NCBI GenBank assembly: GCA_951406725.2
Contig: OX597820.1
Coordinates: forward strand, 76,198,001-76,262,000
DNA length: 64,000 nt
Direction of reading: 5' to 3'
Source: Octopus vulgaris
Lineage: Eukaryota
The notes under the pieces: generated by a model
Database searches by the model: none
What the model was told of the DNA's origin: nothing
What the model saw: the letters and a program-made list of their open reading frames with translations, nothing else
Position numbers and translations under genes: made by a program
In this document: piece after piece, positions 3,602 to 47,064 of the stretch
How positions within the stretch are numbered: position 1 is the first letter of the stretch
Layout: every line of letters starts with the position of its first letter

Positions 3602-3657
<56 letters not shown>

Positions 3658-3714
3658 TTAGTGAATTGAAGAAATGGAGTTGAACGAAGATTGAACAGAA
3701 ATCGTTTTATTGCA

Positions 3715-3794
3715 TTCTACACGTGTTTCGAAAGGCACAATTTACCAAATTCCGATCGAATAATGAGACCATATTGTGTCTTTCTCTTCAGGAA
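3715..3794 (-). ncRNA. Minimal type I hammerhead ribozyme (Penelope-like element type)
   Basis: Minus strand reads UUC-CUGAAGA-GAAAGACACAAU...AUUGUGCCUUUC-GAAA-CACGUG-UA-GAA. The core CUGANGA/GAAA is intact, stem II has 11 of 12 pairs, stem III is the palindrome ACACGUGU, the cleavage triplet is GUA and stem I is 3 bp. Confidence 0.8.
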
Positions 3795-3880
3795 GAAATA
3801 GGAAATCCGTTGGAAAAAACAAAAACAGAACAGAGGCGGAGCAAAACAAATCGAACGAGGCTCCTAAGAGCCCATGGCCA

Positions 3881-4027
<147 letters not shown>

Positions 4028-4327: not shown

Positions 4328-4390
<63 letters not shown>

Positions 4391-4491
4391 TAGTAATGGT
4401 AAGACAACAAAATAATGAATGAGACTTCGATATTATGTAAATAGAGGAATTTGTCAGTAATATAATATGTGACAATTGTTCGGTTGCCATA

Positions 4492-4550
4492 ATAAGACTC
4501 CGAGTTTCGGATGCCGGAGCAGAAAACTGGTGCGGCATCTCGTGAGTTAT
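4492..4550 (-). ncRNA. Hammerhead ribozyme, inverted copy with a core mutation (CUCACGA)
   Basis: Minus strand reads AUAA-CUCACGA-GAUGCCG...CGGCAUC-C-GAAA-CUCGGAG-UC-UUAU. The G-to-C change in the core probably inactivates it. Confidence 0.65.
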
Positions 4551-4634
4551 CGAGGCAATCAAAAACTGCTATGAAAATGACCGTTCAACAATGGGAAATT
4601 ACGGTCATTTGCATAGCATTTTTTGATTGTCTCG

Positions 4635-4693
4635 ATAACTGACGAGATGCCGGAGTAGCTTTCCGCTCCGACATCTGAAACTCGGAGTCTTAT
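4635..4693 (+). ncRNA. Minimal type I hammerhead ribozyme
   Basis: AUAA-CUGACGA-GAUGCCGGAG...CUCCGACAUC-U-GAAA-CUCGGAG-UC-UUAU. It has the core, a long stem II, a short stem III (ACUC/GAGU), a GUC triplet (cleavage after 4689) and stem I AUAA/UUAU. Confidence 0.75.
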
Positions 4694-4944
4694 TACGGCA
4701 ACCGAATAGCTGTCACATATTGTATTACAGATATATATGCATATGTGTGTGTGTGTGTTGTCAGTTAGTTGCCCATGCATTAGAAACAACACACTCAGTA
4801 TGAAAAATAGAATGGTTTTATTGTTATTCATTTGATCCATATATTTTTGGTTATGGTTTATAACTGGGCACAATGCTACCGTCGGTTTCGCACCGACTAT
4901 CGCACAATCCAAGACTGATGACTGTTTAGACACACCTACATACG

Positions 4945-16864: not shown

Positions 16865-16904
<40 letters not shown>

Positions 16905-16906
<2 letters not shown>

Positions 16907-17765
16907 CATTAGGGTAATAAGAATTATAGAAAGCTTTATTACCAGCGGCCTTGCGCAAAAGAAATTAGTCAATAGACTATATATTATTCATATAGAATAT
17001 CGTGTACATTAAAACACATTAAAAAGCCTTCATCATAGGGAAGCCTTGCGCTAGAAAGAGCAGTAAACAACTCAAACCACTAATTAGGGATAAATTCTCG
17101 AAGGGAATGAAAGTCTAAAACATTTACCATCTAATTTAGTTCCTACCATCTAGTTTAGATAGTAAATGTTTTTAATTTTCATTCCCTTCGAGAATTTATC
17201 CCTAATTAGTGGTTTGAGTTGTTTACTGCTCTTTCTAGCGCAAGGTTTTCCTATGATGGAGGCCGCTTAATGTGTTTTAATATACACGATATTTTATATG
17301 GATAATACATAGTCTATTGACTAAATTTTTGTGCTCTAGGCCACTGGTAATAAAAATTTCTATAATTCTTATTACCCTAATATTATTTATGTTTTAAATG
17401 ATTTTTGATAAATTTGTTCGAGGTCTTACCGGCATCCTCTCTATTGCCAGTAATAAGCTGCGTCTGCGCAGTGGAATTGAAAAGTTAGAATATGCAAACC
17501 ATGAGTTTACATGCGGAATCGATCTCGTGTGTATATTTAAAATCTAAAGGCTACCTACTGATGAAGACTGGCCTCAGTAAATCGTTTTTACTGAAATAAG
17601 ACAGAAACCATGGTCTAGGAACTAAATTAGATGGTAAATGTTTTTAATTTTCATTCCCTTCAAGAATTTATCCCTAATTAGTGGTTTGAGTTGTTTACTG
17701 CTCTTTCTAGCGCAAGGCTTTCCTATGATGGAAGCCTCTGAATGTGTTTTAATGTACACGATAAT
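16905..17765 (+). mobile_element. Non-coding Penelope-like/retrozyme-type element: inverted copy plus ~472-bp unit plus partial tandem copy, with hammerhead
   Basis: 16905-17145 is the reverse complement of the unit start (matching 17155-17386). The unit start recurs directly at 17616-17765. Flanked on both sides by (TA)n. Confidence 0.8.
17554..17619 (+). ncRNA. Minimal type I hammerhead ribozyme with palindromic stem III
   Basis: CCUA-CUGAUGA-(agacuggcc UCAGUAAA ucguu UUUACUGA aauaagaca)-GAAA-CCAUGG-UC-UAGG. Stem I is CCUA/UAGG and GUC cleavage falls after 17615. The base of stem II is imperfect. Confidence 0.75.
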
Positions 17766-18067
17766 TTATATATATATATATATATGTATATATTTCGTTT
17801 TGGGATTTGGTTTGCAAGATGCTTTATGTGAGTTCGTGTGTTGAAGCATATTCTGTTGTGTCTGGGAAGAGTCATTCTCTTGTTGGTGCCTTATAATTTA
17901 AATTATATATATATATAATTTTAATATGGTTTTGAGTCAAAAATATTGAAAAGGTTGCAAGACGCAAGGAAAATTTTAGAAGAATAAAAAAAAAATGTGG
18001 AAATTTTACCGGTGAGTGTGTTCAATTATAAGGCATCAAAAGAGAATTACTCTCCCCAGACACAATA

Positions 18068-27475: not shown

Positions 27476-27984
27476 CATTGCATGAGATTCATACCATGAA
27501 ATTCCCCGTGTTCAGCCTCGTCATTAATTAAAATATAGCTTGTTTTTAAAATAAAAAAGTTAATTATGCTCAAATCAAATTTTTTGCCCTGCCTATATAT
27601 GTTATCGTGGTATCTTACCTCACAACTTTTCTGATAAAATGTTTTGTTGCATGGGACCAAAACAACGAAATTCCTCATGCTTTCTTCTATCATTGAAGCT
27701 AAGATAAATATATTTTGCTTTTAAAATCTAAAAACTTATTTAGATCTAAACTTGATGGGAGGCATTGTTTACTCTCCTATAACGTTGCTCCAAATTTTGA
27801 TGCAAACTTTTTTCTAGTTGACGAAATCTCAATTTTTTAATGCCAAAATGTAGCTAGGGACCAGCCGTCTTCAAAAATGTTTTCAATATGGTTAAGAACT
27901 GAATTAGCGACAAACTGTGAAGACGCTACATGTGTGTAAATTACGGCCTCAAGAATGTTATTCAACTACTGCCGTAGTTGAATG

Positions 27985-44132: not shown

Positions 44133-45059
44133 TATGATCTTATGCTAAAAGGCAGATTTTCTCTGCCTCCCAAACCGTTCGTTTTTTATACAATTGTACA
44201 ATATAGAATTTCTTCAATTGGAATTTACCTACGATTTTTACAAGTAGATACGATTGGGTCATGGCATGTAAAGTTTTTTTTCTATTTGACCCCCAATTAA
44301 GCAAAAATTCGAGAAAAGTAAATATTTTACGATTTGCCTCTCTAATTTCAACTGCTTCACTCCTTCCATTACCACTACACTTTCTCCTCCTTTCTCTTTG
44401 TAAGTGTGCGACAATTAAAGTGAAAGTATTTATATCTCAAAAAAAAAAAAATACAGAGCAAACAGAAACAAATAAATACATAACGATTTACTACTCACAC
44501 AATTTCTTCAATTGGAGTTTACCTATGATTTTCCCAAGTACATCCATTCGGTCATGGCATATAAATTTCTTTCAATTTCACCCCCAATTAAGCAGAAATT
44601 CGAGAAAACTCAATATTTTACGATTTCCCTCTCTCACTTCAAAGGCTTTACTCCGCCTATTACTCCCACTTCCTCTTTACACACATAGACACGTAAACAT
44701 ATACATATATGACGGTGTCAATTGTTGAAAGAAAATTGTAAGCTAAGGTGTATGTGTGTGTGTGTGTGTGTGCGTGTGTGTGTGTGTGAGAGTGTGTGTG
44801 TGTGTGTGCGTGTGTAACAGGGATGAGCCATTAATAGAGGTCATCCTTTTTGCTAGAGGAAGATCCGCTATGGTCTTATATGCTACACCACTGGTTTTCA
44901 ATTCATATTAATCAAATTAATATTCAATTTTTCACCCTTATTATGTGTGTGTGTATTAGCAATTCGTATAAAATTGCATCAATGACTTGAACTTGAATAA
45001 GTGGTTTCACATAAATGGGGATAAATTAAAAAGGTTTGTTGTTATTATTATTACTGTTT

Positions 45060-45664
45060 GATTCTGTTCTTGATTCGACGGTCATTCGGAATGCTCACAG
45101 CAGCCATATTCTTACCACTCTATGTCACACTGGTGAGACCCATATTGGAGTATGGGATTCAAGCCTCTTCTCCTTATCTCCTCAAAGACATAAAGCATCT
45201 CGAAAGAGTCCAGAAGCTGGCTACCCGCATGGTTCATGGTCTCAAAAATTTGTCCTACGAAGAAAGGCTGAGGACGCTCGACCTTTATTCTCTTGAAAAT
45301 CGCCGCCGCCGTGGTGATCTCATTCTCGCCCACAACATCATAAGCGGAAAGTGTAACCTCTCGAAAGAGCTGTTCTTCACTCCTGCTCCAGAGCGTCGGC
45401 TGCGGGGTCATTCCGAAAAGCTCTACCTGCGACGATTTCATCTCAATCGAAGGAGAGGAGCTTTCTCCGTCCGGGTTGCGGATCCGTGGAACAAGCTGCC
45501 AAACGAGATGGTGAAGATGCCGACGACTGCTTTGTTCAAAGCCTCCCTGGACCTCAAGTGGCCTGAACTCTTTACATGAACACCACCCTGTACTTAACTC
45601 CATGTCCCCCTACATGGCCTTGCTATTTGCTTTTGAGCCAAATTAACTAACTAACTAACTAACT
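45060..45664 (+). mobile_element. CR1-clade LINE 3' fragment with (CTAA)n tail, nested in the Helitron
   Basis: LYVTLVRPILEY...LERVQKLATRMV...YEERL..LDLYSLE.RR.RGDLI...RLRGH..KL...FSVRV..PWNKLP, a short 3' UTR, then (ctaa)n. Confidence 0.9.
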
Positions 45665-45865: not shown

Positions 45866-46850
45866 GATTTTTTTCCTGGACGCTCCTGGGGGCAATGGGA
45901 AAACTTTTGTCAACAAATTAATATTGGCTGAGATTATGCGAACACAAGGCATTGCCTTAGCTGTGGCATCATCTGGAATTGCGGCTACTTTGTTGCCAGG
46001 CGGCAGGACAGCTCACTCCACTTTCAAGCTTCCGCTTCACTTAGCGAAGACTGACACACCAACTTGCAACATCAGTAACAGCTCCGATCAAGCAGAAGTC
46101 TTCAGACGATGCAAGCTTATCGTTTGGGATGAATGCACGATGGCCCACTGACGTGCTCTTGAGGCACTAGATAGATCTCTCAGAGACATCAAACACTCTT
46201 CAGCTCCCATGGGAGGCATAGCACTTCTTCTTTCAGGGGACTTCCGACAAACACTTCCCGTTATTCCCAAAGGGACTAGAGCTGATGCAGTAAGTGCGTG
46301 TCTTAAGTCATCCACATTGTGGCCACTGGTGAAGACTCTCAAACTTCACACCAATATGCATGCTCATATGCGACGTAATATCACATCAGCAACATTTTCT
46401 CACACCCTTCCTGCACTTGGCGAAGGCAAAATACCAGGGGATGAAAATGGTAATATTGCCATCGATTCCATTTGTACCATTGTTAAAACGCCTTCTGATC
46501 TCAGAGATGCAGTGTTCCCAGATCTACAAGCTAATTATCAGAATATGGATTGGATTGGCCAAAGGGCTATTCTGGCCCCGAGGAATAAAACTGTTCACCA
46601 TATTAATGATGAAATGCTAAAACTCATTCCTGGGGAAGGCTATGTATATAAGTCTATCGATACAACTCCTGACCCAGAGGACGTCATCAACTATCAAATA
46701 GAGGTACTCAATTCCTTTGAGCACCCCGGACTACCACCACACATTCTCAAACTTAAAGTTGGTGCCCCTATAATGCTCATTAGAAATTTGGTTCCCCCCA
46801 AACAATGCAATGGCACACGTTTGATCGTTAAGTCCTTATCTCCCACCGTA
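45866..46850 (+). pseudogene. Helitron RepHel PIF1-family helicase domain, disrupted
   Basis: FFLDAPGGNGKTF (Walker A), VASSGIAATLLPGGRTAHSTFKLP, IVWDECTM (Walker B, followed by a stop), GDFRQTLPV, LPPHILKLKVGAPIMLIRNL, CNGTRL. Confidence 0.9.
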
Positions 46851-47064
46851 AACTTATATCAATATTTGCCTGAATAATCATCATAATTCAGTGCAATCAT
46901 TAACAGTACTTTCAAGCAATTCAGCCCCGAGCATCGCCGGGAAATTCTGCTAGTATATATATATATATGAGTACAGGACACCACAAATAAACGTAGAACA
47001 CAACGAGAAACGAAAACATAAACACAAGCAAGGAATATATACATATATATATATATATATATCT

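Follow-up and report, generated by a model that had tools for sequence, protein, structure and literature searches.

A decayed, protein-less hammerhead element in an octopus (TA)n tract, possibly copied from a ribozyme-cleaved RNA

A (TA)n tract of the Octopus vulgaris genome appears to carry a decayed insertion of a 472-bp, protein-less, hammerhead-bearing repeat family, which we judge, with slightly more confidence than doubt, to have been copied by the enzyme of an autonomous Penelope-like element (PLE) from an RNA whose end had been made by cleavage. The insertion lies in a stretch of 64,000 nucleotides (contig OX597820.1, positions 76,198,001 to 76,262,000), which was analysed as a whole and is referred to here as the window. 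Its layout, its family, the missing coding frames, rare letters shared by its arms and an inner end at +1 to +3 of the unit were read from the sequence, and from these we infer the steps of the mechanism, weighing a single locus that was noticed post hoc. Positions in the unit are counted from 17616 (+1), the first base after the predicted cut at 17615^17616. The parts of the insertion are as follows.

16867..16904: (TA)n target, left flank, overlapping the end of the inverted arm by a few bp
16903..17145, minus strand: inverted arm, +1 (or +3) to ~+240/+243, head-to-head with the forward arm, hammerhead core absent
17144..17158, minus strand: second short inverted piece, +21 to +7, 14/15 match
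17155..17615, plus strand: first forward unit, ~+12 to +472, 33.5% G+C, without a long open frame
17426-17453 and 17457-17472, plus strand: two predicted hairpins
17554..17619, plus strand: predicted type I hammerhead motif, PLE minimal type
17616..17771, plus strand: partial second unit, +1 to +150/+156, 150-156 bp
17634..17710, plus strand: weak candidate for a 77-nt spliceosomal intron
17767..17792: (TA)n target, right flank

Alignment recovers the anatomy where the sequence-only reading had drawn it: a 472-bp unit, a type I hammerhead, a direct second copy and an inverted copy. The period of 472 bp is given by the direct copies (17143-17304 against 17615-17776, 91% identity), and the inverted pairing extends over 16899-17139 against 17150-17390 (89%) and over 16985-17145 against 17616-17776 (91%), with the inverted arm matching the first unit at 200 of 222 positions. 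The inverted arm is ~240 bp long and the forward arm covers ~1.3 units, passing through an intact ribozyme. The locus thus has the structure of a PLE insertion, a partial tandem with a head-to-head inverted, 5'-truncated copy, and both ends of the insertion lie inside (TA)n, an AT-rich microsatellite target. No target-site duplication is discernible within the (TA)n flanks, which also overlap the outer ends, so that the left one is blurred to ~+240 to +243 and the right one to +150 to +156. Pairwise comparison of the three arms over +19..+150 gives 7, 10 and 11 differences in 132 positions, so the insertion is not recent.

A coding remnant in the unit was considered and rejected, as the longest stop-free stretch inside it is 49 aa and a Pfam search with 10 of its 16 frames, at E values up to 1, gave 0/10 matches. 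The AT-rich unit repeats a GC-rich decamer 95 nt apart (16948-16972 and 17043-17067; ~+95 and ~+190), a possible protein-binding motif. Elsewhere in the window, a weak 37-nt match to the junction region of the element (27723-27758, minus strand; 84%, E 0.03) is probably due to chance.

The unit belongs to a repeat family that is present in public sequence runs. With one permuted unit (17290-17765) as the query, part of the unit was found in 20 of the 24 runs listed, which come from 10 studies and carry 4 organism labels; half of the query words occurred in none of these 24, and none of the runs is on record as RNA. The runs consist of contigs, and abundance is expressed as summed contig depth, which is no copy number. 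Four runs were aligned at 80% likeness: X1 and X12 from organism A (1657 and 153 contig records), X2 from organism B (825) and X4 from organism C (1661). X1 may be the run from which the window itself comes, and X12 may be RNA-derived but, consisting of contigs, speaks neither for nor against expression. From these runs, 40 of the 99 letter differences were viewed, together with 15 of the 20 joints, 24 of the 421 loose ends and 32 of the 4379 pieces. All 30 bins of the unit are covered by contigs in each of the four runs, and contigs that are 5-14% divergent, under three organism labels, overlap across +243 and the ribozyme and tile the whole cycle; no single contig spanning the whole unit occurs among those viewed. 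At +78 and +80 all three arms carry G and T, at which 90-99% of the family depth differs, so the arms derive from one source. Exact-pattern scans of metagenome contigs, viral contigs and prokaryote genomes gave no match, as expected for an animal repeat.

The ribozyme motif has a stem I of 4 bp (CCTA at 17554-57 with TAGG at 17616-19), the hammerhead core at 17558-64 followed by an unpaired A at 17565, GAAA at 17604-07, and a stem III formed by an 8-nt palindrome, ACCATGGT (17607-14). Stem II is composed of an upper part (17574-81/17587-94) and a lower part (17566-69/17599-602) that is broken at 17601 in this copy, with an extra A at 17603. The motif has the core, the 4-bp helix I, the base between 9 and 10.1, the G10.1-C11.1 pair and the palindromic helix III of the minimal hammerheads of PLEs. 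In this copy the pair probability is 0.67-1.0 for stem I and upper stem II and ~0.01 for lower stem II. The motif search proposed by the sequence-only reading gave a divided answer. With a descriptor combining core, stem I and a short palindromic stem III, the window yields 3 sites, where 200 block shuffles average 0.045 and never exceed 1; the strict form yields 2 sites, where 200 shuffles yield 0. The Rfam models, on the other hand, do not detect the motif, with 0 matches at gathering and 31 weak matches that include no hammerhead and are artefacts of hairpins or (TA)n. Folded without constraints, 17545-17632 does no better than shuffles (z -1.26).

The family supplies what this copy has lost. 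A T at 17601, which restores the 4-bp lower stem II, is carried by 97-99% of the family depth in all four runs; this supports the suggestion that this copy has decayed, and it is the opposite of a family without a paired stem II, the outcome that had been named as counting against the ribozyme. Because the majority letters of the family repair the broken stem, the family ribozyme looks to have been selected for its fold, with this copy having decayed. A variant of 5 contigs in X4 has a two-sided change in upper stem II, from U-A to C-G. Among the letter differences viewed, an A at 17593, present in 32-62% of the family depth, would break an upper stem II pair unless its partner changes too; the A at 17603, between 11.1 and G12, is retained in the family variants viewed. 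Similarly, the majority letter at 17449 re-forms a pair of the 17426-17453 hairpin that is broken here, while 17426-17472 in isolation folds differently and no better than shuffles.

The case for a cleavage-set end begins at the inner junction. From +1 onwards the inverted arm agrees with the unit in 139 of 150 positions, and at -1 the register is lost. Between the arms lies the short inverted piece at 17144-17158, overlooked in the sequence-only reading, which shares 2 nt with the end of the inverted arm and 4 nt with the start of the forward arm. Because its first two bases also end the arm, the arm end is ambiguous between +1 and +3, being +1 if the 2-nt overlap served as microhomology and +3 otherwise; the proposed start of the inverted copy exactly at the cut is thus uncertain by 2 nt. 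A CTAA-N-TTAG quasi-palindrome contains the start of the forward arm, at +7 to +16. Were ends placed uniformly, the arm end would fall within a given 3-nt window of 472 with probability 0.006 and the forward start within its own window (inner ends within 16 nt of the cut) with probability 0.034; the two ends are not independent and belong to a single event noticed post hoc. The stop of the inverted arm within 3 bases of the predicted cut likely marks the end of the RNA template, and we lean, by a little, towards ribozyme cleavage as what set that 5' end. The reading as a reverse transcript of a self-cleaved monomer is not supported in its first wording: since the forward arm runs for ~1.3 units and crosses the ribozyme, a doubly cut linear monomer could not have served it without circularisation or a template jump.

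A sequence of events that would account for these features begins with transcription of a tandem locus. Only some of its hammerheads would cut, probably by pairing into dimers via the palindromic stem III, and leave an RNA longer than one unit that starts at +1 and retains an inner, uncut ribozyme. A PLE endonuclease would nick both strands of (TA)n, and reverse transcriptase would start internally, at ~+240 on one strand and at ~+150 of the second unit on the other. The short cDNA would run off the cut end at +1, jump back to +21 via the 2-nt match, gain 13 nt and then pair through 4 nt with the long cDNA's end at the CTAA-N-TTAG quasi-palindrome, and fill-in would yield the head-to-head structure. 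Afterwards the arms would have diverged by 5-8% and stem II would have broken in this copy. Purified anole PLE protein is described as cutting AT-rich DNA on both strands and as initiating reverse transcription at an internal point of the RNA that lies downstream of the hammerhead cut (PMC11167929). The same work is the main evidence against a cleavage-set end, because in its account hammerhead mutants still insert in vitro and the number of RNA-seq reads beginning or ending at the cut is 0 (PMC11167929). Both other hammerhead relics of the window (3650-3885 and 4389-4735) start upstream of their ribozyme, which likewise counts against such an end. No autonomous PLE partner was seen.

The depth profile of the family shows how its other copies end. 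Depth over +11..+106 is 25-44x higher than over +243..+450 in 4/4 runs, and over +195..+242 it is 4-7x that over +243..+450; steps thus lie shortly after the cut and close to +180 and +243, the last coinciding with the left end of this locus. For the first of them the profile implies +16 to +18 (~+13 if ramped) and not +1, and upstream of the cut depth is low and roughly flat, without gradual decay. The outer ends of the insertion at ~+150 and ~+240 are 90 nt apart, to be set beside the drops in family depth near +180 and +243; published PLE insertions are described as optionally carrying a 30-40-bp 'tail' from two nearby internal start sites. The high-depth tier is a subfamily other than that of this copy, so upstream divergence could mimic truncation.

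None of 20 joint ends lies within 2 nt of the cut and 4 lie within 10 nt (binomial P ~0.01, for a window chosen afterwards). Three of these four sit 5-10 nt upstream of the cut, in or beside the palindromic stem III, and joint ends there count against cleavage because a cut RNA cannot template them. Left out of the count of 20 are five 'goes back' joints, four of them of 462-472 and the other of 403; the four were rejected as evidence for tandems or circles, as they merely restate the continuity of the unit in a permuted reference. Two joints of other copies, 17376>17625 and 17390>17611 (~+233/+247 to +10/-5; one or two contigs each), suggest internal deletions or else tandem units shortened to 225-250 bp. 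The largest group among the 24 of 421 loose ends viewed, at 17628 (19-28 contigs in X1, X2 and X4), runs on into a variant hammerhead. The alignments contained no position at which many molecules begin or end, which contigs would lead one to expect. As to the predicted pile-up of copy ends at GUC^UAGG, depth does rise downstream of the cut, but the rise comes at +13 to +18 and no joint end falls within 2 nt of the site. These data fit cleavage-set ends without proving them. That the 3' product of hammerhead cleavage was the source of most family copies, as cDNAs that begin at the cut or slightly inside it and end at fixed internal priming sites at ~+150-180 and ~+240, is a tentative proposal that we would not yet favour.

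The alternative that survives best, which we hold to be unlikely, keeps the same family and dispenses with the cut: the template was uncut, and the inner ends arose from fold-back or self-priming on short palindromes near the cut, stalling of the reverse transcriptase or a transcription start near +1. The inverted junctions of PLEs are reported to be commonly palindromic and are interpreted as self-priming (PMC3846280), and the +7..+15 quasi-palindrome here is the start of both the forward arm and the depth step of the family; the 3 of 20 joint ends in or beside stem III, upstream of the cut, also agree with an uncut template, as does the dispensability of cleavage in vitro reported for the anole PLE (PMC11167929). 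A transcription start near +1 would have a parallel in the Penelope of D. virilis, described with an internal promoter and a 75-bp intron 46 bp after the start (PMC2377424), and an intron-like stretch of 77 nt begins at +19 here. However, the inverted arm continues beyond the +7..+15 palindrome to +1/+3 and then jumps back, as on a template that ended, whereas an uncut template would have let the enzyme enter the ribozyme, as on the forward arm. An uncut template would make the match of the arm end to the cut a near-coincidence, and depth upstream of the cut is low and roughly flat instead of decaying gradually.

The 77-nt stretch runs from a GT donor, just after an ATG, through a CTAAT branch-like site and a pyrimidine tract to AG, and is present in all arms (17634-17710, 17162-17238 and 17051-17127). 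In size it is similar to the D. virilis Penelope intron as published (PMC2377424). Its pyrimidine tract and AG are kept in divergent family variants, and a pattern fitted to it afterwards occurs at 2 other places in the window. No spliced joint was found among the 15 of 20 joints viewed, and splicing would open no frame in this copy.

A retrozyme route, in which doubly cut monomers are ligated into circles, the forward arm being more than one turn of a circle and the inverted arm the product of a linear monomer ending at the cut, we regard as improbable. From a circle one would expect an arm longer than one unit with no seam at the cut, going by the published descriptions of such elements (PMC4209133, PMC7229834), and in either register the 472-nt unit folded as a circle outdoes 60/60 shuffles (z -3.2 and -4.3). 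The sign is a weak one, as z values of -3 or lower were reached by 2 of 35 control stretches (47 eligible) and the paired fraction of 0.61-0.63 equals that of shuffles (0.60). Moreover, a circle is endless, which does not suit a forward arm that stops 7-16 nt from the cut, and the ribozyme is of the low-activity PLE minimal type, whereas proven circle-making retrozymes, as described, use the canonical type. Least probable is a one-off remnant of a full PLE, reshaped by DNA-level deletion and fold-back, with the 472-bp unit never mobile: the much greater abundance of the segment just downstream of the cut than of the rest of the unit and the lack of a viewed contig across the whole unit would suit it, but divergent contigs under three organism labels overlap across +243 and the ribozyme, and a coding remnant is absent from all 10 frames searched.

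The contigs in the listed runs, the absence of coding frames and the hammerhead of PLE minimal type support the initial label of a 'retrozyme or non-autonomous PLE' family. Its two halves are nearly one, because a recent preprint, as far as its available text goes, derives retrozyme units from the terminal repeats of PLEs (Li et al. 2026, bioRxiv 10.64898/2026.07.22.740005). Judged from its sequence, the locus would work like a non-autonomous PLE derivative, a kind already known of which the family would be a new member. Partial tandems with an adjacent inverted, 5'-truncated copy and a bias for microsatellites form the published PLE pattern (PMC8557442, PMC3846280). The described insertions of canonical EN+ PLEs (Arkhipova 2013, PMC3846280; Craig 2021, PMC8557442) share with this locus the partial tandem, the head-to-head inverted copy, the palindrome and microhomology at the junction, the (TA)n target and outer ends downstream of the cut. 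In contrast to those elements, which code for a telomerase-like reverse transcriptase as well as for a GIY-YIG endonuclease, this unit has neither frame and so is no autonomous PLE; and where the pLTRs described contain the hammerhead, the repeated part here begins at the cut, without the ribozyme core.

The minimal hammerheads of PLEs are described as having a helix I of 4-5 bp, a long helix II, an unpaired base before 10.1 and a palindromic helix III, with activity that is low and dimer-dependent (Cervera and de la Pena 2014, PMC4209133). The present motif shares the type I topology, the 4-bp helix I, the G10.1-C11.1 pair and the palindromic helix III, and it differs from the consensus as published there in the extra A between 11.1 and G12 and in a helix II that is predicted to be split by an internal loop into 4-bp and 8-bp parts. 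Animal non-LTR retrozymes are likewise non-coding hammerhead repeats (Cervera and de la Pena 2020, PMC7229834); as described, they resemble the unit in having less than 50% G+C and a single type I hammerhead in each unit of a few hundred bp, and perhaps, by a weak sign in the computed fold, in being somewhat structured as a circle. The unit length of 472 bp exceeds the 150-450 bp given in one account (PMC7229834) and falls inside the 51-972 bp of the other (10.64898/2026.07.22.740005). Two ribozymes define an active retrozyme in the latter account, whereas the locus has 1.3 units and one hammerhead, and retrozyme ribozymes are described as canonical, whereas this one is of the PLE minimal type. 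For an RNA 5' end made by self-cleavage, R2 is a model that works alike (Eickbush 2013, PMC3774820), and with an R2 cut at the element end, genomic junctions are reported to vary by chance microhomology (PMC3774820). R2 is nevertheless no relative, being described as a LINE that is autonomous, carries an HDV-like ribozyme and has a fixed target in rDNA.

The window holds further mobile-element relics. At 4389-4735, in (TA)n/(TG)n, lies a head-to-head pair in which each arm has a full type I hammerhead motif, with predicted cuts after 4689 (plus strand) and at 4496 (minus strand), an altered core in the minus copy and the inversion near 4600, upstream of the ribozyme; opposite-strand hammerhead pairs of this kind are among those already described (PMC4209133). 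A further relic, at 3650-3885 on the minus strand and between two (TA)n tracts, has a hammerhead whose stem III is an 8-nt palindrome and whose stem II is long; the relic starts ~90 nt upstream of the core and ends ~65 nt after the predicted cut. Kinship of the 472-bp unit with either was rejected, as the four-way alignment is similar in the core only and BLAST gives no match. Farther on, 46152-46877 contains a PIF1-like helicase fragment (Pfam PF05970, E 2e-22; PF21530, E 4e-15), presumably from a Helitron-type element, and a 184-aa open frame at 45025-45579 has no Pfam match and resembles what we take to be the C-terminal end of a LINE reverse-transcriptase ORF.

The locus itself is ordinary, one of three unrelated hammerhead-bearing relics in (TA)n within one window. 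Penelope elements are reported to be abundant in coleoids, in a source whose available portion makes no mention of hammerheads (PMC8967140). The short interspersed repeats of the window look octopus-like. The literature that was searched, most of it judged from listings, offered no account of this family, nor of PLE 5' ends mapped to the hammerhead cut. What PLE minimal hammerheads do in vivo is termed a mystery in a 2020 review (PMC7761336), and a family of high copy number in which the repeated part begins at the cut is a test case for that role, through mapping of the copy ends. If it is true that most copies are cDNAs of the 3' product, the family would be a genome-wide fossil record of germ-line cleavage by a PLE-type minimal hammerhead, and the cut RNA would be the main template of transposition, contrary to the dispensability of cleavage in vitro.
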